A DNA stretch of 64,000 bases, taken from Patescibacteria group bacterium UBA6017. Lineage in GTDB: Bacteria > Patescibacteriota > Saccharimonadia > UBA4664. The notes under the pieces are model-generated. The model was not told the origin of the DNA and made no database searches. It was given only the letters and a program-made list of their open reading frames with translations. The stretch is taken from NCBI GenBank assembly GCA_002429485.1, contig DIZX01000015.1, positions 187,073 through 251,072 of the forward strand, read 5' to 3'. Both the position numbers and the translations under genes were made by a program. Numbering within the stretch: position 1 is the first letter of the stretch; each line of letters opens with the position of its first letter. Below are positions 41,806 to 60,554 of this stretch, piece after piece.

Positions 41806-41985
41806 ATGACTAAACCCGAACTCGCCCAAATCATCAACCAGCTAGTCTCGCTCGGCGAAGACCAGGCTGAGCTCAATATTTGGCTGGAAATATTCGACTA
41901 CTTAGAGCCAGCGCAACAAACCGAGCTCGAATTAAACCTATCCCAAGAACTCGAGGCCCTCAAATCATCACCGCCAACCGCCTAA
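41806..41985 (+). CDS. small hypothetical protein (59 aa, MTKPELAQIINQLVSLGEDQAELNIWLEIFDYLEP...)
   Basis: Not in the ORF track (59 aa). The ATG abuts the stop of the upstream gene (TAG-ATG), and the frame is protein-like. It overlaps the 5' half of tracked ORF 41880..42236. Confidence 0.3.
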   Translation: MTKPELAQIINQLVSLGEDQAELNIWLEIFDYLEPAQQTELELNLSQELEALKSSPPTA

Positions 41986-42236: not shown

Positions 42237-42285
42237 CCGCCTCATAGAAAAACCCCGCGGCAATCATGCCTACGGGGCTTTTCTA

Positions 42286-42378
42286 TGGCGGAGAGGGAGA
42301 GATTCGAACTCTCGCGGGGGATTACTCCCCCCTACAGGTTTAGCAAACCCGCCCCTTCAGCCACTTGGGTACCTCTCC
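42286..42378 (-). tRNA. tRNA-Ser (anticodon GCT)
   Basis: Acceptor GGAGAGG, anticodon arm CGGGT-TTGCTAA-ACCTG, long variable arm, T-arm GAGAG-TTCGAAT-CTCTC, CCA encoded. A terminator-like hairpin lies at 42250-42282. Confidence 0.9.
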
Positions 42379-42488
42379 GTGCTAGCTGAACCTGGATACT
42401 ATACCGCGCAGAAAGCTTTCACTCAAGACCCGTACGACTTTTATGTATACTAAAATCTAAGCGCGAAAAGTTAAGCCGGAGAAAGAAA

Positions 42489-43115
42489 ATGGGCGAATAC
42501 GGACCATCCAATCAAGATCCAAACCCAAATCAAGCCATAAAGTTTATTGAGTCACTCGATGACACAGAAGATGGCAACGAAATGTCCCTGAAGCGTTGGC
42601 CGAGCATCGATACATTGCATGAAGCCGAAACCTTAGCCGATAGAATCAGCCGACAATTCTTCAGAATGGATTCCGTAATGGGAATCGCCCTCAATAAATT
42701 AAGGCAGTCGGGTAAAGTTAATTTCAAGCTCGTACAAGACTCCCTTAGCGGCCAAGATGACCCCAATGGCCTCGTCCATCCGCTAATCGAAGGCACCGAA
42801 ACCGAGCGTGAAGCGGCAGCCAAGAGTATTGAAGCATTCCTTGAGCAAAATGATGAAATAATTGAAGGCTTGACCCTTCAAGACGATGGCTTCGCCAAAG
42901 CCGAAGAGCTCGAATCCGACGAAAAACTACCCTATGGCTACTCTCAACGGCTACGCGCCAGCTCCATCAAGGCTGATATAAAGTATTTCGAGGACAGCAA
43001 TCAAGGCGACAAAGCCGCGGCGGCCAAAGCTCAAATTGACCAGCTTATCGCCGAAGGATTTAGTCCATTAACCAACGAAGAAATTGCCGAATTAATCGAC
43101 GTCACAGCGATTTAG
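42489..43115 (+). CDS. hypothetical acidic protein (208 aa)
   Basis: Clean ORF in a lower-GC stretch; no recognisable domain. Confidence 0.55.
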   Translation: MGEYGPSNQDPNPNQAIKFIESLDDTEDGNEMSLKRWPSIDTLHEAETLADRISRQFFRMDSVMGIALNKLRQSGKVNFKLVQDSLSGQDDPNGLVHPLIEGTETEREAAAKSIEAFLEQNDEIIEGLTLQDDGFAKAEELESDEKLPYGYSQRLRASSIKADIKYFEDSNQGDKAAAAKAQIDQLIAEGFSPLTNEEIAELIDVTAI

Positions 43116-43176
43116 GCCTCCAACTGACCCCCCCAAAAAAATACCTACCTCCCCGTATTCTCGGTATACTAACCTT

Positions 43177-45938: not shown

Positions 45939-46388
45939 TTAGTTGGCTTTGGATAAAGCATTAATCACGAACTGGACGAGGGCGAAGGATATCACCGCCA
46001 CCACTATACCGACAATGGCATAAAGGATTGTGTCTTTGGCGGCCGTAACGTTCTTGGAGTCACCGTTCGAGACCACGTAGCGCAAGCCGCCGATGATCAA
46101 GTAGATCACCGAGATAGCACCGACGAGGAAGATCAAGGTGTTGGCAATCACGGTGAAAATACCGCCCTGTCCGAACAAGTTATCCTTCTGGCTGCCACCC
46201 TGAGAGCATGAAGCGCCAGCGGTCAGCGGATCAGTAGCGTTGCCACTCGCGTCACAGTTTGATGCAGCTCCGAAGGCCGGGGAGGCCGAAATCATCACAC
46301 CCGCAACGGATGCGGATCCTACTCCCAGCACCAGGACGAGCGCCTGGAGCGAGAGCGCAACTTTCTTTAATAATCTCTCTATACCCAT
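45939..46388 (-). CDS. T4SS pilin-like protein, paralog 1 (VirB2/TrbC-like: signal peptide plus two C-terminal hydrophobic helices)
   Basis: N-terminal signal peptide, a Cys pair (NCDAS...ASCSQ), then IFLVGAISVIYLIIGGLRYVVSNGDSKNVTAAKDTILYAIVGIVVAVISFAL. It has its own promoter (TTGCTA-17-TAATGT at 46427-46455) and an AAGGAG RBS. Confidence 0.6.
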   Translation of the reverse strand: MGIERLLKKVALSLQALVLVLGVGSASVAGVMISASPAFGAASNCDASGNATDPLTAGASCSQGGSQKDNLFGQGGIFTVIANTLIFLVGAISVIYLIIGGLRYVVSNGDSKNVTAAKDTILYAIVGIVVAVISFALVQFVINALSKAN

Positions 46389-46456
46389 TAGAATCTAATC
46401 TCCTTAATAAAATTCAATTTGATGTGACATTAGCATAAGCGTTAACGACTAGCAAT

Positions 46457-46780
46457 CTACTTTCCTATAGTAGTCGTCACGAACTGCACTATCGCATACG
46501 CTACGATTGCTACGATTACACCTATGATAGCGTACATGATGGTGTCCTTGGCGGCCGTCACGTTCTTCGAATCACCGTTGGAGGTCACGTAACGCAACCC
46601 GCCGAGAATAATCATAATGACAGATAGGGCACCGATAAGTATCGTCAAAAAGTTGGCGACATTTGCAAAGATATGAGCCAAGCTCACATTGTTGCAATTA
46701 GCCCCACTCGCACAAGCCTGATTTGCTCCGGCCGTAATATTACTCGCTGCTGTTCCCAGTAAAACAACCAAACTACTCAT
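46457..46780 (-). CDS. T4SS pilin-like protein, paralog 2
   Basis: Signal peptide, Cys pair (CASGANC), and the shared core LGGLRYVTSNGDSKNVTAAKDTIMYAIIGVIVAIVAYAI. AGGAGA lies 6 nt before the ATG. Confidence 0.6.
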   Translation of the reverse strand: MSSLVVLLGTAASNITAGANQACASGANCNNVSLAHIFANVANFLTILIGALSVIMIILGGLRYVTSNGDSKNVTAAKDTIMYAIIGVIVAIVAYAIVQFVTTTIGK

Positions 46781-46800
46781 TTACATTCTCCTAAATTATG

Positions 46801-47106
46801 CTATTTCCCGAGCGCCGCAGCGATTCCGTCCACGATCGCGTAAGCCATGATCGCCAGTATCACCCCAGCAATTGCATATTGGAGCGAATCCCGCCCCTGC
46901 TGATACCGCTTGGCATCACCAGCCGATAAAGTGATTTGCAGCCCTCCTACAATCACGAATATTACCGCCAGCATGCCAATTATTATTATAAGCGTATGCG
47001 CAATACTTGCGAACCCCGTACTCAAATTTGTAGCGGAACTCGGGCAATTGTTGATCGTTTTGCACGAAATACCGTATAGCACCGCGACCAACCAACCGCC
47101 CATCAT
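46801..47106 (-). CDS. T4SS pilin-like protein, paralog 3
   Basis: Cys pair CKTINNC; core VGGLQITLSAGDAKRYQQGRDSLQYAIAGVILAIMAYAI. Its start abuts the stop of paralog 4. Confidence 0.55.
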   Translation of the reverse strand: MMGGWLVAVLYGISCKTINNCPSSATNLSTGFASIAHTLIIIIGMLAVIFVIVGGLQITLSAGDAKRYQQGRDSLQYAIAGVILAIMAYAIVDGIAAALGK

Positions 47107-47451
47107 CTAAAAGTTCCCCGAAATAAACGTAACTGCGGCATACGACATAATAATTAATATTAGGCCCGTTACCGTATTGATGAGGATTTCTTTCGCCCGT
47201 TTCACCCTGGACGGATCTCCTGTCGAGGTAATGTAGTAAATTGCCGCCACTAATATTGCAATGATCGCCAGCGAACCGGATATCGCAATCAAAATTCGCA
47301 TTATGTTCCCGATAATCTTTGCAACCTCTGTCAGTGAGGAAATCTGAATTTCATTCTTCGAATTACACAGGCCGTCGTAAAGACTCGGAAGCACCCCGTG
47401 CGTGGTACCGCAGTCCGCGGCGGCCATATGAAATAGCTGCAAAAAGATCAT
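47107..47451 (-). CDS. T4SS pilin-like protein, paralog 4
   Basis: Cys pair (ADCG...GLCNS); core IYYITSTGDPSRVKRAKEILINTVTGLILIIMSYAAV. Its start abuts the stop of paralog 5. Confidence 0.55.
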   Translation of the reverse strand: MIFLQLFHMAAADCGTTHGVLPSLYDGLCNSKNEIQISSLTEVAKIIGNIMRILIAISGSLAIIAILVAAIYYITSTGDPSRVKRAKEILINTVTGLILIIMSYAAVTFISGNF

Positions 47452-47928
47452 CTACAGCAACCCTCCGGGTACCAGGAAGTTCAAGATCGCCACCATCATC
47501 AAGTAGAGTACCAGCGCGGTAACGGCGTTCATTATTCGTCCCTTAGCGTTCTTCACGTTCGACGGATCGCCGCCCGAAACAATGTACTGAACACCCGCGA
47601 TCACCAGGACCAATATAATTATCCCGCCAATCAGGCTGTTTACCAGAAAAAGTATCTGCTTAAGGTAAAAAATGATTGCTCCGCCGGTCTTGGGATCGTT
47701 CGGAACCTCCACCTGACCCGACTTGCATGATCCCTGAGATCCACCGGCTGCGATCGGCAGCGCTAAACAGACCGGACCGCCGCCCCCGGTAATATCGGCC
47801 GGCGCCTTTGCTGCGGCGCCCACTTCAGCTGGCACCACATACGCTTGGCTACCCAAAACAACAACGTCCAGTGGCGCCGATACAACAGCCGCAAACGCAA
47901 CAAACAGGAATAAACTTAAGCGCTTCAT
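47452..47928 (-). CDS. T4SS pilin-like protein, paralog 5 (first gene of the pilin operon)
   Basis: Signal peptide, Cys pair (PVCLAL...GSCKSG); core VQYIVSGGDPSNVKNAKGRIMNAVTALVLYLMMVAIL. Confidence 0.55.
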   Translation of the reverse strand: MKRLSLFLFVAFAAVVSAPLDVVVLGSQAYVVPAEVGAAAKAPADITGGGGPVCLALPIAAGGSQGSCKSGQVEVPNDPKTGGAIIFYLKQILFLVNSLIGGIIILVLVIAGVQYIVSGGDPSNVKNAKGRIMNAVTALVLYLMMVAILNFLVPGGLL

Positions 47929-48044: not shown

Positions 48045-51000
48045 ATGAGACGTAGGTGGTTCGGAATATTCCTCATGGCGTGGGCGTTTATGTCCCCACT
48101 GTTTGCGTTCGCCCCGGCGGCAGAAGCCGCCCCGCCCTCCGAGTGCCACTGGACTGACCCAAACCACATCGTTTGTGATGGCACCAGCACCTACACCAAG
48201 ACTGCATTCCAAAATACAACCATCTACCGATCGGATATAAGCCACTTTATTGCAAATATCAACGCCGCCCATACGGCTGGAACATTCACCGAAATCACCC
48301 AATCGCCCCAGACGGCCAATACATACCCGATGGCGCTTGGCAGCCCGGCTAATGCCACAACTACACCCAAAAATCCGCCGTCTACCTCCCTTGCCTGCTC
48401 CTGGACAGACAAAACACTCATTCAGTGCGGCACCGAACAATTTAAATTTATTCATATAGCAGCGCAAAACCAAGATCGCTGGGTCAATAGTGCCACCAGC
48501 TTCATTGCCAACGTATCGGCCAACAAGACCGCCGCCACCCATTACACCATGCTTCAATCGGGATTGCCCGGACCTACCAATCCGGTCACCCTTAGCAATC
48601 CGGCCAACGCCACCAAAAACCCAGCTGCTCCTGGCGGAGGTCCAACCGCCGATAAACCCGTCAACTGTGAAGCAGGCGCCTTCACTTGGCTCGTCTGCGG
48701 CAGCATCAAAATCCTCGTCGGTGTCGTCGACACCATTACTAACGATGTTATCGTTCCGTTCCTCAAAGAACCCCCGCTCGACAAAAACCAAAAAGAATTT
48801 GCCCCAGTCTATGCCATCTGGTCAGCATTTCGAAACGTTGCCAGCGTCTTCTTCATCCTCGTCTTCTTCCTGGTGATTATCGGCACCGCCCTCGGCTTCG
48901 ACAACTACACCATTAAGAAGGTTCTCCCGCACCTGGTAGCAGGCGCCATTTTGATGCCGTTCTCGTGGTATCTATGTGCCTTTTTGGTCGATATCGGCAA
49001 TGTGCTTGGCCAAGGCATCGTCGTACTCATGACTAATATTATTATTATCGGCACGCCCAAAGTAGATCTCACCTCGAATTTCACCACCTTATTCCTCGGT
49101 GTCGGCGGGGGAGTAGGCACTTTCGCATTAATCGGTGCCGCAACCATCCTGGGGTTCTGCGCCATAATCTCGCTGCTAATTGCCTTCGCCGGCGTATTTC
49201 TGACCCTGGTATTCCGCAAAATATTAATTCTGTTTCTGATCATCATCAGCCCGTTTGCCCTCCTGGCCTGGGTCCTGCCCAACACCGAGAAGTGGTTCAA
49301 AGAATGGTGGCAAAACTTCCTCAAGCTCGTTATGCTCTATCCCATCATCATGATGCTGATCGAGGTTGGCCGTCTGTTCTCCGCCACTGCCACCGCCGCC
49401 TCCCCCGGCGCCATCTGTGCCGCCGGCGATACGGCCTGTCAGGCGACAGCCTGGGTAGCACCATTCTTCGCCATCGCCGGACTCACCGTCCCGCTCTTTA
49501 TCATCCCGTTTGCCTTCAAGTTTGCCGGCAAGGGTCTCGCGGCGGGCAGCGGCGCCATCAACAAGCTTGGCGGCGGCATCGACAAGAAATACGGAAAGGA
49601 CAGCGCCCTCGCCAAGGACCTCGCCGAAGGGCGCCAGCGCAAGAATGTGGCAGCTGCCAAGATTGCCGAAAGCAACGCCAAGAGCGCTCATGGCCTTCAC
49701 AAGACCGCCCTGAACCGCAAAGCCGCCATGAACTGGCGCCGAGCCGGGTTGGCGGGCAGTACCGGCAGCGCCAAGCTGAGGCGCGGTGAGGCCGTCGGCA
49801 AAGCTGATAAAGAATTAAGTACGATTGATGCCGATAACCGTATGTCCAAAGAAGCAGATCCGGAAGACTTCCGGCAGCGCCGCCTCTCCACCACGCAGAG
49901 CATCCTCGACGAGAAGGCTGCCAACCGCGGTGCCCGCCAAGGTGTATTAGAAGGTTACAATGGCGCGGGCGCTCCAGGCGCACGAGACAAGCAGCACCAG
50001 GCTCGCATCAACTCCCGCGACAATTATCTGGCTGCAGCCGGAAAAGCCAAGGGCGAGATCGAAGACGACGCTCTCAACGAACGCGAACGAGTCAATCGCA
50101 CCGGCAATTACGTCAGCCCATCCATGAAAATGGCCGCCGCTCACGATACAGCCGCCCTTTCGGCCTCGGATGCTCGCGGAACAGCCAGAGGCATCGTTGA
50201 GGGCGGGGCTGAGGCTGAGCGTATCATTCAAAGTCAAACCGGCTTAAACGCCGCTGATGCCCGCGATCTTCGGCTCCGTAATGTAGCTAAAGCCAAAAGC
50301 AACATCCAAAGCGCTTCGGCAGTCACGACCCAACAAACTGCTAACACCAATGTAACCGCCAATGCCGAGCTCGATCGCCAGCAGATCGCAGCCGCCGGCG
50401 GCCATATGTCCCCCCAGCAAGCCCGCAGTCTACGTATGCAGAACCTATCCGCCGCCACTCACTCTCAAGAGCGTGAAAAGATTGGTGCCGCCGAAGGTCA
50501 GATCGATGCCCGAAATGCCATCACCGCCTCCGCCGGCCAGGAAAACATGGGCCGCCTGGTAACTGGTGAGCGGATGGCCGCCCGCGAGCAGCTCTCCAGC
50601 GCCCGGACCTTGCGCGAAGCCCGCGCCGACTTCCAAGCCACTCCCGAAGGCTATATGTCGACCGCTGACTCACTCAAGGCCAGCCGTTTGGAAGCCAACA
50701 AGCGTATAGGTGCCAGCATAGGCGCCCAAAAACAAGAGATCGCCCAGGAGCAGGAAGATATCGCCAAAGCCCTGCGCGACGGTAACCCTGCCCCCAGACT
50801 GGCCGACCACGTAATCGCCGGCACCGAAGCCGCCAAATCTAAGACCGCTCAAGACTCCGCCCAGCGCCTGGCCGCCGTCAACGCCGTCCGTACCGGCACC
50901 GCTGCCAGCACCAGACAGCACACCGACGCCGCCGTCTATACGGCCGAGCGCAGCACCGCCATCGCCGACGCCGCCGTCAAAGCCACCGCCAGCGCCGTTA

Positions 51001-52586
51001 ACGCCCAAATCGCCGCCGTTGCCGGGGAGAAGGGCTTATCTACAGCCGCCGCCGCCCAAGCCGTCCGCACCGATAATCTCAAAGTCGCTGCGCGCGCCAA
51101 AGAAATAACTACGAACGCAGAATTTGCTACTACTCCCGCAAAAGACAGAGGCGTCATCAAGGCGTATGAAGCCGCCATCGAACAGGCCCGAGAAGCCCCC
51201 CTCCGAAAAGCCAAGGTAGCAGCCTTTGAGCGTGCCGATGAAAATGCCCGCACCGACACCTATGAACAGTCCTATCAAATCGCAAAAGCCGCCAAAATGA
51301 CGGACAAGGCAGGCAAGATCGTGAAAGACGCCGCAGGCAACGAGGTTCTCAAGTTCACCGAAGGCGAAGCCCGAGACTATGCCGCAAAAGCCAGAGATAC
51401 GCTCGGCGCCGAAAGGGGCCAAAAAGCTGGTCGCGAGGCAGCCGACAAAATCACAGCCGTAGGCAAGTTGAATTCCGCAGATGCCGAACGAGCCGTGATC
51501 GCATCCTCCGCAACAGCCGCAGAAGAATTAGCCATGCGCACAGAAGCCTCCTCGCAAGCCCAAACTGCCGCCCTCAATCAGGCCGTTGAATCGTCTGCCA
51601 CAAAACTCGATGCTAGAGAGCGCCTAGCCGTCCAGACCGAAGGTTCCGTTGCAACACTAGCTGCCGAATCTGGAGCCGCCAGAGCCCGCTACGACCTTAC
51701 TCGTCCCGGACAATCGTTAAACCAATCCTATCAAGCTGCCGAAGACCACGTAGTAAAGTCCGAACGGCTAAAAATAATAGGTGATCGCGTCGAAAAAGCC
51801 GGCAATGAAGACTTTACCTTTATGGGCAAAGACGGAGTGCCACACTCCGACAGTGTCAAAAACGCCGACTTAGGCCCAGACGGCGTCAAAGCCCAGGACG
51901 ATGAAATCAGGAGGTTGCTCAAAGATGGTTACCAAGACCCCGAAAACGAAGATCGCGCCCTCGCGCTCGTAGGCAGACTGTCGTTAACGGGCAGCGGCAG
52001 AGAAAGAGTTCGCGCAATTCAACGTGACCTATTTGGAAGAACTGAAGACCAATTGATCGATCCCACCAGATTTAAGGGCCGGGCCAGTGAGCTCTGGGAG
52101 ATCGTGCAGTCAAAAAACAAATCTGATGTATCCAAGGACTTCTTCATGCCCGAACCTGCCGCCTATGACGGCTACAGCTCATCCGAGTTTGGTCGCTCTG
52201 GTTGGGGAGAAAAGAAAAATTACTTCGAATTCGCCAAAAGAGTAGACAAAGATAATATTTACGACGAATCTACTCGAAATATCCAACAAGCCCTAACCAA
52301 CGCTCAAGTTACAAAGGAACTGAATTCCGATGACTACGCTCAAATGTGGATCTATATGCAAGACCCCAAGGCCCTAACTGCTCTGGCCACACGAGACACA
52401 GACGCAGGGAAAGGCAAAACAGGCCTCGACATCGTAAAGAAGATATATGCGTCAGGTGGCGCGGCTGAAGCCGAAAAGAGATGGTTAGAAAAACAAGGCG
52501 GCGACCCAAGCAGGAATATTCTCAAACAATACGCAGATTCTGGCTTCACTGTTTTACCGCCAGTGCCACCCCCTCCGACCCCCTAG
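48045..52586 (+). CDS. VirB6/TrbL-like T4SS inner-membrane protein with an N-terminal Cys-pair repeat domain and an about 1000-aa Ala/Lys/Glu-rich C-terminal extension
   Basis: 1513 aa. It has a signal peptide; three C-x9-C motifs (CHWTDPNHIVCDG, CSWTDKTLIQCGT, CEAGAFTWLVCGS); a polytopic core of about 8 TM helices between residues 230 and 500; then a low-complexity Ala-rich helical tail. Confidence 0.7.
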   Translation: MRRRWFGIFLMAWAFMSPLFAFAPAAEAAPPSECHWTDPNHIVCDGTSTYTKTAFQNTTIYRSDISHFIANINAAHTAGTFTEITQSPQTANTYPMALGSPANATTTPKNPPSTSLACSWTDKTLIQCGTEQFKFIHIAAQNQDRWVNSATSFIANVSANKTAATHYTMLQSGLPGPTNPVTLSNPANATKNPAAPGGGPTADKPVNCEAGAFTWLVCGSIKILVGVVDTITNDVIVPFLKEPPLDKNQKEFAPVYAIWSAFRNVASVFFILVFFLVIIGTALGFDNYTIKKVLPHLVAGAILMPFSWYLCAFLVDIGNVLGQGIVVLMTNIIIIGTPKVDLTSNFTTLFLGVGGGVGTFALIGAATILGFCAIISLLIAFAGVFLTLVFRKILILFLIIISPFALLAWVLPNTEKWFKEWWQNFLKLVMLYPIIMMLIEVGRLFSATATAASPGAICAAGDTACQATAWVAPFFAIAGLTVPLFIIPFAFKFAGKGLAAGSGAINKLGGGIDKKYGKDSALAKDLAEGRQRKNVAAAKIAESNAKSAHGLHKTALNRKAAMNWRRAGLAGSTGSAKLRRGEAVGKADKELSTIDADNRMSKEADPEDFRQRRLSTTQSILDEKAANRGARQGVLEGYNGAGAPGARDKQHQARINSRDNYLAAAGKAKGEIEDDALNERERVNRTGNYVSPSMKMAAAHDTAALSASDARGTARGIVEGGAEAERIIQSQTGLNAADARDLRLRNVAKAKSNIQSASAVTTQQTANTNVTANAELDRQQIAAAGGHMSPQQARSLRMQNLSAATHSQEREKIGAAEGQIDARNAITASAGQENMGRLVTGERMAAREQLSSARTLREARADFQATPEGYMSTADSLKASRLEANKRIGASIGAQKQEIAQEQEDIAKALRDGNPAPRLADHVIAGTEAAKSKTAQDSAQRLAAVNAVRTGTAASTRQHTDAAVYTAERSTAIADAAVKATASAVNAQIAAVAGEKGLSTAAAAQAVRTDNLKVAARAKEITTNAEFATTPAKDRGVIKAYEAAIEQAREAPLRKAKVAAFERADENARTDTYEQSYQIAKAAKMTDKAGKIVKDAAGNEVLKFTEGEARDYAAKARDTLGAERGQKAGREAADKITAVGKLNSADAERAVIASSATAAEELAMRTEASSQAQTAALNQAVESSATKLDARERLAVQTEGSVATLAAESGAARARYDLTRPGQSLNQSYQAAEDHVVKSERLKIIGDRVEKAGNEDFTFMGKDGVPHSDSVKNADLGPDGVKAQDDEIRRLLKDGYQDPENEDRALALVGRLSLTGSGRERVRAIQRDLFGRTEDQLIDPTRFKGRASELWEIVQSKNKSDVSKDFFMPEPAAYDGYSSSEFGRSGWGEKKNYFEFAKRVDKDNIYDESTRNIQQALTNAQVTKELNSDDYAQMWIYMQDPKALTALATRDTDAGKGKTGLDIVKKIYASGGAAEAEKRWLEKQGGDPSRNILKQYADSGFTVLPPVPPPPTP

Positions 52587-52659: not shown

Positions 52660-53469
52660 ATGGGCCAGTATAAGGTGCCGCAAAACGTAGAGGCCGAGGA
52701 CAAGATTCTTGGCCCGTTAACTTTCAAGGAGTTTATCTACTTCTTGATGGGTTTTGGTTGGGCCGCGCTGAGCTTTGCCATCTTCCGTCAAATTCCCGTC
52801 CTCATGGTCGTCATCGGCTTTCCGCCCACCACGCTATTGCTGCTGCTGGCCTTCTACAACCGCGACGGCCAAAGCTTTGAGCAGCTCCTGGTAGCCATGG
52901 TGGGTTTCTTTGCCACCTCCCGCCGCCGCGCCTGGTCCAAAGATGACATCATCGAAACCTTCCACGTGGAGGCCACCGTCATCGCCGCCGAGGCCACCCA
53001 GCGCAATTCGGCCGAAGTCCGCGGTGAGCTCGAAAAACTCGCCAACCTCATCGATTCCCGCGGCTGGAACCACCCCCAGGAGCCCGAACCCTCACAGATC
53101 ATGCCATCTATCGCCCACACCGACCGCATCGTGCCCACGCCGCCGCCAACCCCCGGTGAAGTACCCACCGATATCCTCGACCTGCAGCAAAGTCCGCTGG
53201 CCCAAAACCTTGCCGAGCTACTACGCGCGGCAGCCGAAGACGTTCGCGAAGAGGCTATCCAGCAAATGGCCGGCAAGCCAGTCCGGCCCGTAAAAGGCGC
53301 TCCAGCCCCCACAAGCATAAGCGGCGTGACAGCCGCGTCGCCGAACGATATACTTCAATTAGCAACGCAGAGTGATGAGTTAAGTGTGACGCAGATTGCC
53401 GCCCAGGCCACCCGCCGGGTTGCGCTGCCAAACGGACAAACCTTGGAGATTCCCGTCAATGGCAGCTAA
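52660..53469 (+). CDS. PrgI-family (VirB3-like) T4SS membrane protein
   Basis: N-terminus KVPQNVEAEDKILGPLTFKEFIYFLMGFGWAALSFAIF matches the PrgI-family pattern (VPKDI..YEEK..GLT.RQ), followed by two TM helices. It overlaps the next gene by 11 nt. Confidence 0.65.
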   Translation: MGQYKVPQNVEAEDKILGPLTFKEFIYFLMGFGWAALSFAIFRQIPVLMVVIGFPPTTLLLLLAFYNRDGQSFEQLLVAMVGFFATSRRRAWSKDDIIETFHVEATVIAAEATQRNSAEVRGELEKLANLIDSRGWNHPQEPEPSQIMPSIAHTDRIVPTPPPTPGEVPTDILDLQQSPLAQNLAELLRAAAEDVREEAIQQMAGKPVRPVKGAPAPTSISGVTAASPNDILQLATQSDELSVTQIAAQATRRVALPNGQTLEIPVNGS

Positions 53470-54193
53470 CGCCAATACACATTCCGGTAAAAGCGCCCAA
53501 GATACCCTCCTGATCGCCGAGATCAAGGATGGCATCGTGGTCATGAAAGATGGCTCCCTCCGAGGCGTTATTCTCAGCAGCGCCATCAACTTCGACCTCA
53601 TGAGTCCCAGCGAGCAAGAGGCCGTCGAATCAGCCTATCAGGGCTTCCTCAACTCGCTGCATTTCCCCGTACAAATCTCCATTAAGAGCCAAAAAATCGA
53701 TATCACCGGCTACCTCGAGAAGCTCGATGCGCTCCGTGCTGAGCAACCCAATGAGCTCCTTGGCGTCCTGATGGACGACTACATCGCCAACATTCGCGCC
53801 CTCGTGGAAGAGGTCAATATTATGGACAAGCAGTTCTACGTGGTCATCCCGTATTTCCCCCCGTCCGCCGTTCAAAAAAGCAACAGCCTGATCGATAAGC
53901 TCAAAGGCGCCTTTGAATCCACCCCGATGATTACCGTCAGCGAGGAAGATTTCAAGAAGAACAAAACCGAGCTCTCGCAAAGAATGGCTCTGGCCGCCAA
54001 CGGCATGACCCAAATGGGCGTCCGCGCCATCTCGCTCGGCACCCAAGAGTTGGTTGACCTTTACTATTCCTGGTACAACCCCGACGTCGCCGTCAACCAA
54101 AAACTCATCGACACCTCACAGCTCGGCACGCCAGCCGTCACCAAGGGAGTCGGCTCCGCGCCGCGCGGCCCGCTACCGGGAGCACCACTGTAA
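53459..54193 (+). CDS. VirB4 N-terminal domain protein (split VirB4, part 1)
   Basis: IAEIKDGIVVMKDGSLRGVILSSAINFDLMSPSEQEAVESAYQGFLNSLHFPVQISIKSQKID is a typical VirB4/TraE N-domain. It ends at TAATG, which overlaps the next ATG. Confidence 0.7.
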   Translation: MAANANTHSGKSAQDTLLIAEIKDGIVVMKDGSLRGVILSSAINFDLMSPSEQEAVESAYQGFLNSLHFPVQISIKSQKIDITGYLEKLDALRAEQPNELLGVLMDDYIANIRALVEEVNIMDKQFYVVIPYFPPSAVQKSNSLIDKLKGAFESTPMITVSEEDFKKNKTELSQRMALAANGMTQMGVRAISLGTQELVDLYYSWYNPDVAVNQKLIDTSQLGTPAVTKGVGSAPRGPLPGAPL

Positions 54194-56064
54194 TGGGACT
54201 ATTTGGGAAAAAACCTGCTGCCACCGTCGACCAAGCTCAACTCGAACAGATGCAAAAATCGATGGAGTCTCGCGAAGCTGAGCTCATTTACCGTCAAGGT
54301 ATCGTCACCATGCGCGACCTCATCGCGCCGCCCTCAATCGAGGTGGAATCGGCCTATCTTCGCCTTGGCAAGCGCTACTGCAAGACTATCTATGTTTATG
54401 GCTACCCCCGCCAAGTTTTCACGGGCTGGTTATCGCCCATTATTAACCTCGACGAACTCGTCGATCTCTCGCTCTTTATCTACCCAGTCGAGAGCCAAGT
54501 GGTACTCACCAACCTCCGCCGCAAAATGGGCCAGCTCGAGGCCAGCTACAGTATCAACCAAGAAAAAGGCCTCGTTCGCGACCCTGGCCTAGAGGCCGCC
54601 ATTCAAGATGCCGAAGAACTCCGCGACAAGCTGCAAGTAGGGGAGGAGCGCTTCTTCCGTTTTGGACTTTACCTCACCATGTACGCTGACACGCTGGACA
54701 ACCTCAACCAAACCACGCGCAAGATTGAAGGTATCTTCGGTCAGTCACTGGTCTATACCAAACCCACCACTATGCAGATGGAACAGGGCTTCAACTCCAC
54801 CACCCCGCTCGGAACCGATCAGATGCAGATCAGCCGCAACATGAACACCGGCGCGCTCTCCACGAGCTTCCCCTTTACCTCCTCCGAACTCTCCCGCAAT
54901 GAAGGCATCCTTTATGGCCTCAACCGGCACAACAACGGCCTGGTACTCTTCGACCGGTTCAGCCTCGAAAACGCCAACATGGTGGTGTTCGCCAAGTCCG
55001 GCGCCGGTAAATCCTTCGCCATCAAGCTGGAGGCCCTGCGTAGCCTCATGATGGGCGTCGAATGCATCATTATTGACCCGGAAGACGAGTACAAGCCCCT
55101 CTGTGAGGCCGTCGGTGGAACCTACCTGCGCCTCAGCCTGGCCTCCAAGACTCGCATCAATCCCTTCGACCTTCCGCGCGTGTTCGACCAAGACGAGGCC
55201 GATAACGCTCTGCAGGCCAACATCATCTCGCTCCACGGCCTCCTGCGCCTCATGATGGGCGGCGCCACCGTCAATACCTCTACCGGCGCCACGCTGTCCT
55301 CGCCGCTTTCACCCGGCGAAGAAGCCGATCTGGATGCCGCCATCATCAACACCTACGCCCGCGCCGGCATCACCCGCGACCCGCTCACCCACAGCGCCAC
55401 CCCGCCCACCATGAACGACCTCTACAACACCCTCGCCTCCATGACCGGCACCGGCCCCGGCCTCGCCCAGCGCCTCCGCCAGTACACCACTGGCACCTTC
55501 TCTGGCATCTTCTCCGAACAATCCAACGTTGAGCTCGACAACCCCTTCCTGGTCTTCAACATCCGCGATCTCGAAGACGCCCTCCGCCCCGTCGGCATGT
55601 ACATTGTCCTCAACTACATCTGGAATAAAGTTAAATCCGACCGCCGCAAGCGCCTGCTCATTATTGACGAGGCCTGGCAGCTCATGAAGTACGACGATTC
55701 TGCCAACTTCATGTTCTCGCTCGCCAAACGCGCCCGCAAATACTACCTCGGCCTCACCACCATCTCGCAGGACGTCGAAGACTTCCTCGGCAGCAAGATG
55801 GGCCGCGCCGTGGTGGCCAACTCCTCCCTCCAGCTGCTGCTCAAGCAGGCCCCCAGCGCCACCGACATCATCGCCGAAACTTTCAAGCTCACCCAAGAAG
55901 AAAAGAACCGCCTCAGCCAATTCCCGGTGGGCGAGGGCCTATTCTTTGCCGGCCTCAACCATGTCATCATCCGCATCTTAGCGTCCGATACCGAGACCCA
56001 GCTCATATCAACTAATCCCGGCGGTACCAAAACCCCTCCGCCGACCGGAGGTGAGGCTCAATAA
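54193..56064 (+). CDS. VirB4-family T4SS ATPase (CagE/TrbE/VirB domain; split VirB4, part 2)
   Basis: Walker A VVFAKSGAGKSF, Walker B LLIIDEAWQLM, and the central motif YVYGYPRQVFTGWLSPII...DLSLFIYPV. Confidence 0.9.
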   Translation: MGLFGKKPAATVDQAQLEQMQKSMESREAELIYRQGIVTMRDLIAPPSIEVESAYLRLGKRYCKTIYVYGYPRQVFTGWLSPIINLDELVDLSLFIYPVESQVVLTNLRRKMGQLEASYSINQEKGLVRDPGLEAAIQDAEELRDKLQVGEERFFRFGLYLTMYADTLDNLNQTTRKIEGIFGQSLVYTKPTTMQMEQGFNSTTPLGTDQMQISRNMNTGALSTSFPFTSSELSRNEGILYGLNRHNNGLVLFDRFSLENANMVVFAKSGAGKSFAIKLEALRSLMMGVECIIIDPEDEYKPLCEAVGGTYLRLSLASKTRINPFDLPRVFDQDEADNALQANIISLHGLLRLMMGGATVNTSTGATLSSPLSPGEEADLDAAIINTYARAGITRDPLTHSATPPTMNDLYNTLASMTGTGPGLAQRLRQYTTGTFSGIFSEQSNVELDNPFLVFNIRDLEDALRPVGMYIVLNYIWNKVKSDRRKRLLIIDEAWQLMKYDDSANFMFSLAKRARKYYLGLTTISQDVEDFLGSKMGRAVVANSSLQLLLKQAPSATDIIAETFKLTQEEKNRLSQFPVGEGLFFAGLNHVIIRILASDTETQLISTNPGGTKTPPPTGGEAQ

Positions 56065-58547
56065 TGGCTACTGGTTTTAAATCTTACCGGACTAAACCTA
56101 CCGACGGTTCTGACGAACCTATAAGCAACAGTCCGCAGATGAATGACGACAACCTAACAAATGGTCCGATAGTCCCAGCCCAGCCCGACGGCGCCCCTCT
56201 CACCCCCCACGAGCAAGCCACCATTGATCAAATGGAGGCCGGTTTTGACACCGACAGCATCCCGGAGCCAGAGCAGCCAGCACAGTCCGGCTCCGAGCCG
56301 GCTTCTTCGGCCGGCCAACCCTCGGGCCAATCCGCAGCCAACCACGCTCCTCGCTCCGATGCCAAGGCCCAGCCCGACGCCAACCCGGAAAATACCGACA
56401 CCCCTAGCGCGGAAGATAAGAAACAAGCCGCCGAAGATGAGGCTGCCGACGAAAAAAAGTCCATGGCCAAACAAGCCTCCAAGGATACCGCCAGGCGAAC
56501 CGCCCTCTACGCCGGCGCCGAAATCGGTAAAGAGATCGTCAAAGACGCCGCCAAGGATGTTGCGCATGGAGCGGCCCAAAACGCCGCCAAACATGAAGCC
56601 AAAAAAGTCACGGGCGCCATGATCAAGGGCGCCGCTAAATCCGGTGTCAAAAAGGCCGCCAAGAAAACTCTCAAGCGGGCGATCTTCAAGTACATTTTTG
56701 GGTTTGGCATCCCCACGCTCGGCATTATCGGGATTCTCTTCTTCCTCCTCTTATTCAAGAGCGTCCACATCCGCAATATCTATATCGATTACGAATTCGC
56801 CAAATTCGACCGCGCCTTTAGCCGCCGCCTCCAAAAGGCCGCCAAAGAAGCTCAAGCCAAGGGCACGCCCACGACCGAAGTCGCCGCCGATGCCACCCCC
56901 GAGGAACAGCTCAAAGGCGCCAACAAGGATGCCATCGATCAGATCAAAAATGATCCGGCGGCGATGGAAAAAGAAGCTAAGGCCGGCACCGATTTTGAGC
57001 AAACCAAGGCCGGCGTCGGTGGCGAGACGGATCTAGAATTCGGCATTAAACGCAGCGTGGCTCCGGAGGACGAAACCGACCCCAGGAAAGCTCAAACCGC
57101 CGTGGAAACTGAAATTAAAGACGAAATCAGGGGTCCCAAAGGTACTACAGGTGATCCGGGGCCGTTGAAAAATGCCGTCGACGAAGCCAACAAGCAAGCC
57201 GACGCGGGAGCTACCCCCGAAGAGATCAGGGCCGGCGCCATTAAAAACGTCGGCAGCCTGCTGTCGGGTGTCACCGGTAAGGCCGCCGCCGCCCTTTTCA
57301 TCGCCACCATGGGCTGTATTGCCCGCGATATCTATGTCACAAGCGTCGACTTATTTTCCCAAATTAAACTCAGCGCTTTGGCTCGTACTGCCGCCTCCAT
57401 CGCCAAGCACGCCGACTGCCATCGCGAAGTCGACAACCATTGCGGCCTCGCCAGTGAAGCGGCCGTTTCCCAGATGTTCGATTCCGCCACCGAATCATTC
57501 ATCAATACTGCCGGCTACCAACGCGCCACCAACCAACCCGTCAGCTACGCCAAGTCCAACCGTGACCTCGATCCGGCCATGGAACCAGTAAATCATGGTA
57601 CCGGGCTCGCCGGCGAGCTTATGGGTATCATCAATAGCGTCAATAGCGTCGCCAACTTTCCCGGCCTAGGCTCGGTCTGCACCATAGTGCTAACCCCGGC
57701 CTTCCAGATCACCGCCACCATCTCCCTCGTCCTCGCCCAGGTCGCCCTGGCCATTAGTGGTGTTGCCGACTTTGGCCTCAGCGATGTTGTTCTAGCTGCC
57801 GTTACTACTGCAGCCCAAATCCTCGCCACCAAGGCGGGCACTGCCCTCGCCGTCGATGCCGTCCTTCATTATTCGGGCCTCATTTTCCGCGGCCCCTTCA
57901 CGCCCACCCAAATGGGCAACATGATGGATGCCGGCTCCAAGGTCATGAGCTCCGACGCCTGCATGCGCAGCGGCTGCCACCAGCTCACCCCCGCCCAAAA
58001 CCAGCAGCTCTCCGACTCCATCCACCACGACCAGGTCGAGTACGCCCAGCGCCAAGGCATAGCCTACCGCCTCTTCAGCCCCGAAAACCCCAACTCGGTC
58101 CTTGGTCTCGTCGCCGACCGTGTTCCTTCCCACGTCGGCAGCGCCGTCACCATGGTCCAAACCGCCATCATCAACAACGCCGTACCCGGCCGATGGCTCA
58201 AGATGCTTGGCCAGCTGGCCGCTGCCAGCCCCACCACGGCCTATGCCGCCACGGCCGAATACCAAACCTACAACCTGCCGGATTGGGGCGTCCCGGACAG
58301 CGAAGCTGACAAATACGGCGTTATCGAAAACAGCCGCTGGGTAGAGGCCAATATCGATGCCGCTACCAAGACCAAATTCGAAGACTGCTTCAATACCCCG
58401 ATGAACAAAATGCTTACCAAACCCGGACTGACTGACCTTGCCTTCTGCAACGACATTACCGAACCTATTACTCGCTACCGCATCTTCAAGCTCGATCAGC
58501 GCGCCTCCCACGCCCTTGTAGTTCTCAATAATAATCAGGCCAAATAA
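56064..58547 (+). CDS. T4SS-embedded membrane protein of unknown function (827 aa)
   Basis: An about 200-aa disordered Pro/Gln/Ala/Lys-rich N-terminal region, a TM helix (IFGFGIPTLGIIGILFFLLLF), then a large Cys-containing domain with further hydrophobic segments. TAATG overlap with the VirB4 gene. Confidence 0.5.
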   Translation: MATGFKSYRTKPTDGSDEPISNSPQMNDDNLTNGPIVPAQPDGAPLTPHEQATIDQMEAGFDTDSIPEPEQPAQSGSEPASSAGQPSGQSAANHAPRSDAKAQPDANPENTDTPSAEDKKQAAEDEAADEKKSMAKQASKDTARRTALYAGAEIGKEIVKDAAKDVAHGAAQNAAKHEAKKVTGAMIKGAAKSGVKKAAKKTLKRAIFKYIFGFGIPTLGIIGILFFLLLFKSVHIRNIYIDYEFAKFDRAFSRRLQKAAKEAQAKGTPTTEVAADATPEEQLKGANKDAIDQIKNDPAAMEKEAKAGTDFEQTKAGVGGETDLEFGIKRSVAPEDETDPRKAQTAVETEIKDEIRGPKGTTGDPGPLKNAVDEANKQADAGATPEEIRAGAIKNVGSLLSGVTGKAAAALFIATMGCIARDIYVTSVDLFSQIKLSALARTAASIAKHADCHREVDNHCGLASEAAVSQMFDSATESFINTAGYQRATNQPVSYAKSNRDLDPAMEPVNHGTGLAGELMGIINSVNSVANFPGLGSVCTIVLTPAFQITATISLVLAQVALAISGVADFGLSDVVLAAVTTAAQILATKAGTALAVDAVLHYSGLIFRGPFTPTQMGNMMDAGSKVMSSDACMRSGCHQLTPAQNQQLSDSIHHDQVEYAQRQGIAYRLFSPENPNSVLGLVADRVPSHVGSAVTMVQTAIINNAVPGRWLKMLGQLAAASPTTAYAATAEYQTYNLPDWGVPDSEADKYGVIENSRWVEANIDAATKTKFEDCFNTPMNKMLTKPGLTDLAFCNDITEPITRYRIFKLDQRASHALVVLNNNQAK

Positions 58548-58549
58548 CA

Positions 58550-59842
58550 ATGCGACGCTTACTACTCATCCTTTCCCTCGCCCTTGTTCCGTTTCAGGCG
58601 CTAGCCGTCACGCCCGCCACCAGCCATATCCTCAACTATCAATCTACCTTCTACGACCCCGCCGACACTGGCCAAACTTGCGGCAGCCCCACGAGCGGTG
58701 GCGCTCCCGCTGGCAGCGGCAACCCCAGCGGTACGCAAGTTCAACACGCTCAATCCATCATCGGTATTGCGAAAACCTTAAACATGGGCAAGCAAGGCGC
58801 TCTCATTGGGCTTATGGTTGCCCTAGCCGAATCCAGTCTTCAAAATTACGCCAATGACGGCTCATTTCAACCCAGCTATGCACCTTTAAAGGCAATTTCT
58901 GAAGCCCTTCCGCACGACGCCGTCGGCAGAGATCATGACTCCGTCGGCTTGTTTCAGCAGCGCGCGGTTGATGGCAGCTGGGGGCCAGTGAGCCCCTCCA
59001 AGGACCTGGCCGGAAACGTTAAATGGCTCATGACCCCAACCTATTCCGCCGAGGCCTTCTTTGCCATGCCGGCCGGGAAAGGTGACACCAAAGCCCTGAC
59101 GAACGTCTCTGGGTGGCAGACCATGGACCCTGCAGTCGCTGCCCAAAAAGTCCAGGCGTCAGGCGACCCTAGTGGCGGCAACTACCGACGTCAGCAGTCC
59201 GCCGCCGAAGCCCTATTAACTAAATACTATGACTCTTCGCCCGCCATAGCGCTCCCAGTACCATTGGCTAAGGGTGGCGGCGGTGGCGGTGGCGGCAACG
59301 GGGGATCGAGCGGAGGGACTGCGAACAGCTCATGCCCCGATACCTCAGCTCCTACCACCGGAGGCCCGATCTCGGGCTGCACCAACCCCATCACCGATCA
59401 TCGCTGGCAGCCCGCCCGAACAGATCAGGGCGTCGACTACGTCGAGAACGCCAACATCCCCGTCCGTGCCATCTGCGACGGCACCATAGTGGAAACCGAT
59501 GGCGGCGGCTGGCCGGGCGGATACTTTGTAATCATAAAAATGTCGGCCGGCCCTTACATAGGAAAATGCACCTTTGTTGCCGAACATCTCAGTAATGTAT
59601 TGCCCAAGGGCACAAAAGTGAAAGCCGGACAACAAATTGCCACCACCCTGCCGGGTTACCCCTGGACTGAATGGGGCTGGGCCGCCGGACCTCAGACCCC
59701 TAGCACGACGTATAATGGCGCCGCAGATGGGTCCTCTATGCCGGGAGGAAAAGCCTTTGCCCGTTTCCTCCGCCACCTCGGAGCCAAAACCCAACAAGAC
59801 CCCGGTCCTGGCCCCGAATACGCCGGCAGCAATTGTAATTAA
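58550..59842 (+). CDS. secreted two-domain cell-wall hydrolase (SLT/lysozyme-like N-domain, poly-Gly linker, M23/LytM-like C-domain); functional analogue of VirB1/PrgK/TcpG
   Basis: Signal peptide; ALAESSLQNYANDG...DHDSVGLFQQR (E-S...GLxQ transglycosylase-like); G8-NGGSSGG linker; C-domain DQGVDYV...GKCTFVAEHLSNV...KAGQQIATT (M23-like, but the canonical HxH is not obvious). Confidence 0.6.
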   Translation: MRRLLLILSLALVPFQALAVTPATSHILNYQSTFYDPADTGQTCGSPTSGGAPAGSGNPSGTQVQHAQSIIGIAKTLNMGKQGALIGLMVALAESSLQNYANDGSFQPSYAPLKAISEALPHDAVGRDHDSVGLFQQRAVDGSWGPVSPSKDLAGNVKWLMTPTYSAEAFFAMPAGKGDTKALTNVSGWQTMDPAVAAQKVQASGDPSGGNYRRQQSAAEALLTKYYDSSPAIALPVPLAKGGGGGGGGNGGSSGGTANSSCPDTSAPTTGGPISGCTNPITDHRWQPARTDQGVDYVENANIPVRAICDGTIVETDGGGWPGGYFVIIKMSAGPYIGKCTFVAEHLSNVLPKGTKVKAGQQIATTLPGYPWTEWGWAAGPQTPSTTYNGAADGSSMPGGKAFARFLRHLGAKTQQDPGPGPEYAGSNCN

Positions 59843-59879: not shown

Positions 59880-60554
59880 ATGAATCCAGACTTCCCAGAC
59901 CAAACCAGCCCAGATCCAATGAAGCCAGCTTCAAGCCGCAAAAAAATAATCATCCTTGTAGCCCTCGGGGTAATCTGTCTAATCGGCCTATTAACCTTCA
60001 CGCAAAATCGATCCAAAAAAGTCTCTCAAACCTCGACAAGCCCACAACCGTCCAGCGTCGCTCACGCCACCTCCACCCCGCTTCCCGACCCTCATCCCGC
60101 TCGAGACGTTATTGCCTTAGTCACCAACTACGTACAAGCCCGAGAGAATTCCGTAGGAGCAGATCAGGCGACTCCGAATTCCTGGCTGGCCTCGGTTAAA
60201 CCAATTTCAACAACGGCCTGGTTTGCCGAGCTCCAACCCGGACAAAAAGGATCCGCCGGAAGCGCAACTGCCGAATTTAACCTGGCACACAACAACGACT
60301 ACATTGTCTCGGCCAATCTTAGTAAATGTATCTGGAATTTTAAGCTCGGCCTTCCCACCCCCAACGCCGGCGATATCTATTGCGAGCTCACCGACAGCAC
60401 CCTCTCCCGTTCCACGCAAGCCGTCATACCCGACGAGTCCCTACCGTTTGGCTGGAGCCACAACGGCGCACAAGCAGCGGTAACCCTCAAATTAATCAAA
60501 CAAAATGGCACTTGGCTCATCAACGACGACACTAGTGGCGCCGATCAGGATTAA
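59880..60554 (+). CDS. bitopic membrane protein, possible VirB8/PrgL-like (NTF2-fold) T4SS component
   Basis: Short cytoplasmic N-terminus, one TM helix, Ser/Pro linker, and an about 150-aa C-terminal domain. Both its position (last gene, after the hydrolase) and its topology match PrgL/TcpC. No sequence motif was recognised. Confidence 0.35.
   Translation: MNPDFPDQTSPDPMKPASSRKKIIILVALGVICLIGLLTFTQNRSKKVSQTSTSPQPSSVAHATSTPLPDPHPARDVIALVTNYVQARENSVGADQATPNSWLASVKPISTTAWFAELQPGQKGSAGSATAEFNLAHNNDYIVSANLSKCIWNFKLGLPTPNAGDIYCELTDSTLSRSTQAVIPDESLPFGWSHNGAQAAVTLKLIKQNGTWLINDDTSGADQD

Follow-up and report, generated by a model that had tools for sequence, protein, structure and literature searches.

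A conserved protein encoded between virB4 and a cell-wall hydrolase gene in the type IV secretion locus of Saccharimonadia is a candidate scaffold for peptidoglycan-modifying enzymes

The protein investigated in this study, the 827-residue product of a gene located in a stretch of 64,000 nucleotides from Patescibacteria group bacterium UBA6017 (referred to as the window), is encoded within a type IV secretion system (T4SS) locus, and its closest described counterparts are found in the systems of pCF10, pIP501, pCW3 and ICEBs1 and in those of other Patescibacteria. PrgL (pCF10), TraM (pIP501) and TcpC (pCW3) are bitopic proteins with a short cytoplasmic N-terminus, one transmembrane (TM) helix and an extracytoplasmic domain, a plan that resembles the one of our protein. 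The hydrolase PrgK is a binding partner of PrgL, as TraG is of TraM, and both scaffolds are presumed to recruit the hydrolase to the T4SS (Sun et al., 2024, PMC11323569). PrgK, TraG (pIP501) and CwlT (ICEBs1) in turn combine an N-terminal membrane anchor with extracytoplasmic peptidoglycan-hydrolase domains. Their genes come immediately behind virB4, and the T4SS does not function without them. In PrgK, a TM helix is followed by a degenerate, metal-free LytM domain, a phage-tail-lysozyme-like muramidase and a CHAP domain (PMC11323569).

In Patescibacteria, T4SS loci that are chromosomal and located close to the origin have been described by Quinonero-Coronel et al. (2025, PMC12102498). In Candidatus Southlakia epibionticum, such a system was shown by transposon sequencing (Tn-seq) to be essential for growth as an epibiont, and it does not contain a relaxase or coupling proteins (Wang et al., 2023, PMC10633639). 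The same study lists SEML1_0007 of strain ML1 as an essential gene coding for a protein of 1113 residues (PMC10633639, Tables S1 and S2), whose only recognised domain is a Hedgehog/DD-peptidase (M15) at residues 951–1105 (PMC10633639). Like the gene in the window, SEML1_0007 is located directly after virB4 (SEML1_0008). In Southlakia, genes coding for a lysozyme-type hydrolase and a PEGA protein come next. The architecture of SEML1_0007 matches that of members of the family described below that are about 1100 residues long and fused to a VanY domain, whereas the protein of the window is shorter and devoid of a peptidase domain. As judged from position, size and C-terminal domain architecture, both genes are putative orthologues. 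Published work refers to SEML1_0007 only as a 'peptidase homologue' or as VirB1-like and leaves the core of about 600 residues undescribed, and a literature search on SEML1_0007 found no paper discussing it.

Our analysis suggests, with moderate confidence, that the 827-residue protein is bitopic and serves as a scaffold linking cell-wall hydrolases with the T4SS of Saccharimonadia, which are epibiotic bacteria of ultra-small size. Since in its relatives the extracytoplasmic domain is either fused to cell-wall enzymes or encoded beside them, this domain most likely brings such enzymes to the secretion system. A first-pass annotation, which was confined to the letters of the window, had described an open reading frame of this size at 56064–58547, between the genes of VirB4 and a hydrolase, which is exactly what we find, and it had considered the gene as inserted at this place and as lacking a counterpart at this position in the pCF10 and pCW3 paradigms. 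As far as position is concerned, no such counterpart is known from either operon, although they constitute the wrong frame of reference, since a gene at this position is standard in the chromosomal, origin-proximal T4SS of Patescibacteria. An insertion is contradicted by related loci, all of which carry the gene at the same position.

This constancy is illustrated in the distribution of the family and in its gene order. A word-indexed search identified 10 relatives, and an exhaustive profile search of 1.84 billion representatives retrieved 281 at E ≤ 1e-3, including 96 with E ≤ 1e-10 and 40 with E ≤ 1e-30. The majority of these proteins are 800–1300 residues long, and a repeated homologue search with a 66-sequence profile provided no additional members. 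All named homologues and loci originate from metagenome-assembled genomes of Candidatus Saccharimonadia, Saccharimonadales or Saccharibacteria. Gene context was covered for 12 distinct members with identities ranging from 69% down to about 18%, and for the distant members P0058, P0104, P0147 and P0154 the profile E-values lie between 1e-7 and 1e-18. The homologue directly follows virB4 in all ten loci with a visible upstream gene (L001, L004–L009, L012, L013 and L014), with a gap of −1 to 22 nucleotides in the nine loci where it was measured, and a peptidoglycan-hydrolase gene follows directly in 12 of 12 loci, near recF, dnaN and dnaA. The order shared by the ten loci, virB6-like, prgI, trsD-like, virB4, the gene of our protein and the hydrolase gene, beside recF/dnaN/dnaA, agrees with published descriptions (PMC12102498, PMC10633639), and in L011 and L015, where the upstream gene is a cut-off fragment that was not identified, the downstream hydrolase and recF/dnaN/dnaA are present. 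The gene is thus a fixed and conserved member of the Saccharimonadia T4SS locus. Its presence in the 12 distinct orthologous loci examined, the Saccharimonadia-type origin of all named contigs and the constant virB4 and hydrolase neighbours lend good support to the proposal of the first-pass annotation that it codes for a lineage-specific component of the T4SS.

The same gene order is accompanied by features of a genuine coding region. The start codon overlaps with the stop codon of virB4 in the sequence TAATG, by which both genes are translationally coupled, and the stop codon is located two nucleotides upstream of the ATG of the next gene. A database entry with 100% identity (P0001, JGI, 802 residues) has been called from Met 26, but we favour the upstream ATG (residues 1–26, nucleotides 56064–56141) on account of the coupling with virB4 and of the start of the orthologue P0002 of locus L001, whose N-terminal MATGFKSY is identical and which shows the same one-nucleotide overlap with virB4. 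In comparison with this orthologue, the ratio of nonsynonymous to synonymous substitution rates (dN/dS) is 0.18, compared with 0.05 for VirB4, 0.03 for RecF and 0.01 for DnaN, ratios that are rough with dS being about 1 and close to saturation. The value of 0.18 reflects a reading frame that is clearly under purifying selection and, together with the 281 family representatives, it identifies a real coding gene. The evolutionary rate of the protein exceeds that of these neighbours several-fold, and a dN/dS as high as its own is found for the VirB6-like protein of 1513 residues encoded in the same locus (0.17).

The anatomy of the protein (Table 1) largely follows the outline of the first-pass annotation, which had proposed a long disordered N-terminus with a Lys/Ala-rich stretch, one clear TM helix and a Cys-containing domain of about 600 residues with extra hydrophobic segments. 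In an AlphaFold2 (AF2) model, the predicted local distance difference test (pLDDT) score is below 50 over most of residues 1–186 (residues 1–45, 59–95, 97–116 and 142–186), and the Lys/Ala-rich stretch corresponds to residues 161–200 (nucleotides 56544–56663). This tail is poorly conserved, with an alignment occupancy of 0.3 and an identity to the family consensus of 0.08 over residues 1–204, and its length varies from 3 to 301 residues across the family. The TM helix that follows reaches a Kyte-Doolittle hydropathy (KD) of 2.37 at residues 211–229 and is present in 66 of 66 members. It is prolonged outward by a juxtamembrane helix (residues 232–262) whose columns are invariant among close homologues and which contains His 235, conserved in 74% of 129 members.

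Two features of composition indicate a bitopic topology with a cytoplasmic N-terminus and a large extracytoplasmic domain. On average, 4.3 Lys and Arg residues flank the TM helix on its N-terminal and 1.7 on its C-terminal side, with an excess on the N-terminal side in 109 of 129 members, a positive-inside bias that places the N-terminus inside and the C-terminus outside. The other feature concerns the cysteines of the following domain, which spans about 590 residues and in our protein contains eight of them, at positions 418, 452, 460, 539, 633, 638, 775 and 795. Their number ranges from 4 to 20 in the family and is even in 125 of 129 members, and individual pairs occur together: 452/460 in 27 of 27, 633/638 in 31 of 31, 418/539 in 123 of 126 and 775/795 in 113 of 126 cases. 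The cytoplasmic VirB4 of the same loci contains between zero and three cysteines, often in odd number. Since cysteines that are gained and lost in pairs are the signature of disulfide bonds, residues 418–795 would be located outside of the cytoplasm, and this parity provides what we regard as an independent and stronger topology signal than the charges flanking the helix.

The extra hydrophobic segments turned out to be real, being located at residues 396–428 and 526–600, yet they are only moderately hydrophobic (KD 1.2–2.0) and inconsistent across the family, where their averaged KD is 1.0–1.4. Most members contain at least one segment with a KD of at least 1.6, whereas about a quarter contain none. 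In light of this low hydropathy, their inconsistent presence and their location outside, we read these segments as helices of the ectodomain instead of constitutive membrane spans. The helices of residues 526–600 show a pLDDT of 37–69, which makes them the lowest-confidence part of the model, and they may have a conditional membrane-active role. An alternative topology with five TM helices was rejected, since it would place the pairs Cys 452/Cys 460 and Cys 418/Cys 539 in the cytoplasm and requires the weak segments that are missing in many members. Besides the near-invariant cysteines, the only residue found in 129 of 129 aligned members is Ser 678 (nucleotides 58095–58097), which is part of the motif FSPENPNS (residues 671–678); there is no conserved His or Asp that would point to a catalytic triad with this serine.

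The model of residues 197–827, which was obtained from a 66-sequence alignment with a mean pLDDT of 82.8 and a predicted TM-score of 0.84, contains 30 helices and essentially no strands, and a run with the full-length protein has reproduced this all-helical structure with only isolated bridge residues. Our protein has no match in Pfam, NCBIfam, PHROG or among PDB sequences. A Pfam scan of 52 members at E ≤ 1e-3 and E ≤ 1 found C-terminal enzyme domains only and no recurrent match in the core. The 66-sequence family profile detected among PDB sequences only VanY/LdcB carboxypeptidases, via a C-terminal part that is missing in our protein, and weak VirB2 matches of the same profile (E 1.8–4.3) were dismissed as noise. 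A Foldseek search with the model gave nothing significant, with best E-values of 0.64 in the PDB and 0.63 in BFVD. Below significance, the matches ranked highest belong to tripartite alpha-pore-forming toxins and to tape-measure proteins, and the similarity to ClyA-type or tripartite toxins and to tape-measure proteins is not significant, with E ≥ 0.6 and TM-scores of 0.06–0.14. The protein, which the first-pass annotation had called unknown, has thus not been traced to a well-known unrelated protein by remote homology and structure searches, and in the absence of a significant match in sequence or structure we describe its ectodomain as having no detectable relative instead of as a proven new fold.

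Its structural properties also set our protein apart from the bitopic components with which it shares its plan. The VirB8 family consists of NTF2-like domains of the alpha+beta type with about 150 residues, whereas the ectodomain of our protein comprises about 590 residues and is all-alpha. A comparison with VirB8, PrgL, TraM and TcpC revealed no similarity in sequence or profile, and the AF2 model contains no NTF2-like domain. In a survey of Patescibacteria T4SS, the class ABY1 accounts for nearly all VirB8 homologues, none is recognised in the T4SS loci of Saccharimonadia, and searching the Southlakia proteome by structure recovered no VirB8 (PMC12102498). For Southlakia, one NTF2-like protein, SEML1_0012, is listed as non-essential (Table S2 of Wang et al., PMC10633639). 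In the window, the ectodomain of the 224-residue bitopic protein at the end of the locus, with a helix followed by strands, could by eye be NTF2-like and would constitute a putative VirB8 candidate without support from its sequence; no family or PDB match was found for this protein.

The link between our protein and cell-wall enzymes is apparent in the C-termini of its relatives. Of 129 members, 89 extend by at least 100 residues beyond the end of our protein, whereas 38, our protein among them, have no such extension, and in 23 of the 52 members scanned with Pfam the extension contains a recognised domain (VanY in 15, SGNH/GDSL in 6 and M23 in 2). Other extensions show a SxHxxGxAxD...HxH pattern, which we read as a LAS-metallopeptidase motif, or are LytM-like with a weak PDB match to an M23 peptidase (E 0.005). 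In the family consensus, both motifs of the fused VanY-type domains (SxHxxGxAxD and H) are retained. No peptidoglycan-hydrolase domain was found in our protein, which ends with the core. The location of the enzymes at the C-terminus fits the proposed outward orientation of this end of the protein. In this respect the family differs from PrgK, TraG and CwlT, where the enzyme domains follow almost directly after the anchor, since here an ectodomain of about 590 residues is constant, whereas the enzymes are optional, interchangeable and absent from the copy in the window.

The hydrolases encoded after the gene are similarly diverse and combine GH3 with a phage-tail lysozyme and VanY, GH3 with amidase_3, lysozyme with SGNH and a C39-like domain, glucosaminidase with amidase_3 and NlpC/P60, SLT with amidase_3 and CHAP, or SLT_2 with M23, or they consist of M23 alone or of a C39-like domain alone. 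In the window, this protein of 430 residues contains an N-terminal signal or anchor helix, a lysozyme-like domain at residues 59–232 and a LytM-like domain at residues 264–430 (nucleotides 59339–59842), the latter being 56% identical to the C-terminus of the family member P0008 (E 5e-58) and 54% to that of P0004 (E 4e-45). The same LytM-like domain is therefore found either as the tail of a homologue of our protein or as part of the product of the next gene, a Rosetta-stone sign that both work together. The domain types are those of PrgK, which likewise contains LytM and phage-tail-lysozyme-like domains. In the LytM-like domain, Asp (DQGVDY) takes the place of the His that acts as the first zinc ligand in LytM of Staphylococcus aureus (HYGVDY), and on inspection the sequence contains TEWGW instead of an HxH motif. 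The domain thus appears to be catalytically degenerate, which makes it similar to the LytM domain of PrgK, which is free of metal, and to the dLytM domains that have a regulatory role in EnvC and NlpD.

The gene after that of our protein would, from its sequence, be a hot spot of recombination or cassette exchange. Between the window and L001, DnaN is 98% and VirB4 95% identical, yet the hydrolases are wholly different: the lysozyme-like and LytM-like protein of 430 residues in the window contrasts with a protein of 736 residues in L001 (12475–14685) that contains GH3, phage-tail lysozyme and VanY domains. Both share only the first 44 residues, which are 61% identical and include the N-terminal hydrophobic anchor.

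Fusions, Rosetta-stone relation and disulfide signature point, as far as sequence can tell, to a scaffold for hydrolases instead of the adhesin or channel extension that had been suggested by the first-pass annotation. In such a scaffold, the variable and disordered cytoplasmic tail would face the side of the ATPase, and the TM helix and its juxtamembrane extension would sit among the membrane components of the T4SS. At the external side of the membrane, the disulfide-stabilised helical ectodomain would serve as a platform for peptidoglycan-modifying enzymes, which in most relatives would be held covalently and in the window would be supplied by the next gene with its lysozyme-like and degenerate LytM-like domains. 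Our protein would thereby join the role of PrgL and TraM as scaffold that binds a hydrolase with that of PrgK as membrane anchor, by means of a fold that is unrelated to either. From these relationships we infer its binding to the separate hydrolase, its assembly into the T4SS and the cutting of a wall, either that of the bacterium itself or that of its actinobacterial host. The latter may be the substrate of the enzymes, a speculation prompted by the fast evolution of the protein, the swap of enzymes between near-identical genomes and the presence of SGNH domains, which would be unusual for a housekeeping VirB1; speculatively, the SGNH domains could act on O-acetylated peptidoglycan.

Several points weigh against the scaffold. 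A fusion reveals functional linkage and not the nature of a role, and binding of the protein to the hydrolase and to the T4SS is presumed in this proposal. With 590 residues, the ectodomain is far larger than a simple tether requires. The conservation of Ser 678, Gly 624, Pro 688 and Ala 728 is left unexplained, and the low-confidence hydrophobic helices at residues 526–600 could be membrane-active, which is not accounted for by a pure scaffold. Finally, the putative homology to SEML1_0007 is drawn from position, size and the C-terminal domain.

The hydrophobic helices are central to an alternative that we consider unlikely, in which the protein forms an envelope-penetrating or translocon element at the distal end of the conduit, with an ectodomain reaching the host, helices 526–600 inserting into its membrane or wall in the manner of alpha-pore-forming toxins or of phage tape-measure and ejection proteins, and the hydrolases opening its peptidoglycan. 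A helical protein with hydrophobic segments and a peptidoglycan hydrolase recalls the tape-measure and ejection proteins of phages. The top matches of the structure search to alpha-pore-forming toxins and tape-measure proteins would fit this picture although they are far from significant, and so would the presence in most members of hydrophobic helices rich in small residues, which are too weak for constitutive TM helices and coincide with the only low-confidence part of the model. The fast evolution of the protein relative to VirB4, the entirely different enzyme repertoire of genomes with 98% identical DnaN and a T4SS that is essential for epibiotic growth and devoid of relaxase and coupling proteins (PMC10633639) are also in line with such a function. 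However, the strong N-terminal TM helix anchors the protein in the membrane of the producer, about a quarter of its relatives lack a segment with a KD of at least 1.6 in this region, and the covariation of Cys 418 and Cys 539, located in or beside the hydrophobic segments, as a likely disulfide suggests that the helices are stapled into the fold. Also improbable in our assessment is a function as regulator, in which the ectodomain would keep the enzymes inactive until assembly of the system or contact with the host, as described for the effect of LytM and CHAP on the muramidase of PrgK and of EnvC/FtsX on amidases. Fusions and synteny favour regulation as much as scaffolding, and sequence cannot separate the two; the shuttling LytM-like domain is degenerate, such domains being regulatory elsewhere (PMC11323569), and EnvC is found among the weak PDB matches, but the fused VanY-type domains with their retained motifs look like active enzymes.

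A relationship to pilus or channel components finds less room. The five T4SS_pilin genes of the locus, and the lack of a VirB5 homologue for these loci in two published accounts (PMC12102498, PMC12857230), could hint at a VirB5 analogue that acts as nucleator, tip or adhesin of a VirB2-like pilus, which would be unusual in a monoderm bacterium, and the ectodomain is all-alpha like VirB5 proteins and evolves as fast as surface adhesins do. We regard this as very unlikely, since the protein has three to four times the size of VirB5 (~220 residues), contains a seemingly uncleaved TM anchor and a long cytoplasmic tail in place of a signal peptide, and none of 52 members matched Pfam VirB5 (PF07996), although the threshold was as lenient as E ≤ 1; the hydrolase fusions and the TM anchor would remain unexplained. 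The position of the gene is identical to that of ConG in ICEBs1 and Orf15 in Tn916, which are proteins of about 750–815 residues encoded between the virB4 homologue and the hydrolase (conE-conG-cwlT and orf16-orf15-orf14), and the similar size and extra hydrophobic segments could suggest a divergent VirB6-type channel protein. This identity is essentially refuted. ConG and Orf15 are of the TrbL/VirB6 type with about seven TM helices, whereas our protein contains a single universal one, in place of the at least five expected for this type, next to weak and inconsistent segments, and the paired cysteines place residues 418–795 outside of the cell. No match to TrbL (PF04610), TrbL_3 (PF19590), the CD1112-type or NCBIfam models of the VirB6 type was found in the protein or in 52 relatives at E ≤ 1, and the locus already encodes a separate polytopic VirB6-like protein of 1513 residues. 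Paralogy with this protein was tried and rejected, with an hhalign probability of 1.7%.

Going beyond the hydrolase scaffold, a bolder proposal, which we consider a long shot, holds that the ectodomain is a new fold and a wall-spanning distal part, engaging the host, of a T4SS that is essential and non-conjugative, with interchangeable enzymes (DD/LD-carboxypeptidase, O-acetyl-esterase-type SGNH, LytM-like and lysozyme domains) matched to the wall chemotype of the actinobacterial host and helices that breach or fuse its envelope. If true, the protein would be a determinant of host range in epibiotic candidate phyla radiation (CPR) bacteria.

The described system is not new, since the T4SS cluster has already been published, as has the finding that in one species the gene located here is essential. 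In the literature searched, we have found no recognition of the core of about 600 residues, rather than the peptidase, as the conserved element, of the proteins as a large unannotated family, or of their extracytoplasmic disulfide-bonded nature and exchange of enzyme domains with the neighbouring gene. Our work corrects the view of the gene after virB4 as coding for 'a peptidase', by illustrating that the peptidase is the dispensable and the unannotated core the conserved part. This is of relevance because the saccharibacterial T4SS is the first that was shown to be essential for its own carrier and has no relaxase, essential coupling protein or recognised VirB8, because the family with its 281 representative clusters is as constant as VirB4 in the loci examined and yet unannotated in the libraries searched, and because, in the only species amenable to genetics, the gene found at the corresponding position is essential. 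The fusion of the family to, and its fission from, rapidly shuffled cell-wall enzymes offers a testable handle on how a single Gram-positive-type wall or two of them are crossed, and perhaps on the choice of host.

Table 1. Coordinates of the protein, its regions and the neighbouring T4SS genes in the window.
Feature	Position	Strand	Basis
Protein under study, coding sequence, 827 residues	56064..58547	+	Open reading frame and translation, ATG start
Residues 1–204, cytoplasmic tail, mostly disordered	56064..56675	+	pLDDT, alignment
Residues 205–235, single universal TM helix, putative N-in/C-out	56676..56768	+	KD, family conservation, Lys/Arg flanks
Residues 232–262, conserved juxtamembrane helix VHIRNIYIDYEFAKFDRAFSRRL	56757..56849	+	Invariant columns, pLDDT 91–98
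Residues 236–827, predicted all-alpha ectodomain, ~590 residues	56769..58544	+	AF2, Cys pairs
Residues 526–600, small-residue-rich, moderately hydrophobic helix cluster	57639..57863	+	KD, pLDDT
Five VirB2-like pilin genes, tandem array	45939..47928	-	Pfam PF18895 T4SS_pilin, all above gathering score
VirB6-like protein, 1513 residues, polytopic	48045..52586	+	Signal peptide, ~8 TM at 210–489
PrgI family (VirB3-like)	52660..53469	+	Pfam PF12666, E 4.3e-12
TrsD/TraC-like, free-standing VirB4 N-terminal-like domain	53396..54193	+	NCBIfam TrsD, E 3.1e-9
VirB4 ATPase (CD1110 family)	54193..56064	+	NCBIfam NF045971, E 4.9e-108; Pfam P-loop_TraG
Hydrolase, 430 residues, downstream partner	58550..59842	+	Pfam M23; PHROG endolysin/tape-measure lysozyme
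Bitopic protein, 224 residues, end of locus before recF	59880..60554	+	TM at 23–41

The remaining components of the locus are largely those of a T4SS as described for this lineage. The five pilin genes are divergent in sequence, are transcribed divergently from the remaining operon and match the arrays reported for Saccharimonadia. The VirB6-like protein shows no TrbL match in a Pfam scan of the window copy; its L001 orthologue, with 71% identity, gives a weak TrbL match (E 0.0047), and for its orthologue and positional equivalents there are precomputed matches to TrbL_3. It is unusually long, with a charged C-terminal region of about 1000 residues, rich in Ala, Glu, Lys and Gln, that follows the TM region and is probably helical or of low complexity. 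Orthologues of the TrsD-like protein have a precomputed match to PF26593 TraC-like. As listed with a TTG start, its reading frame overlaps with the 3' end of prgI by 74 nucleotides, and since the corresponding gene in L001 overlaps by only about 10 nucleotides, the real start in the window is probably located further downstream.

The genes recF and dnaN follow the gene of the 224-residue protein on the opposite strand. Other large reading frames of the window that were sampled are mostly housekeeping genes and code for DnaG, GroEL, two phosphoglucomutases, a Mur ligase, threonine dehydratase and ValRS, and among those sampled there was no coupling protein or relaxase and two had no Pfam match. 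The window is thus part of a chromosome of Saccharimonadia within the CPR/Patescibacteria and not of a plasmid-type element, and its T4SS is chromosomal and origin-proximal. The GC skew stays below zero in all 2-kb bins (−0.10 to −0.33) and does not change sign across the window, which, given that the window ends by dnaN and recF, places the origin and the switch in skew probably just beyond its right end. Positions 41152–41805 code for a protein of 217 residues with a weak match to Pre-toxin TG (PT-TG, E 2.7e-4, below the gathering score), followed by two reading frames without a family match (42489–43115 and 43177–44601). As judged from this arrangement, the region of 41152–44601 could constitute a polymorphic-toxin-like cassette located a few kb from the T4SS.

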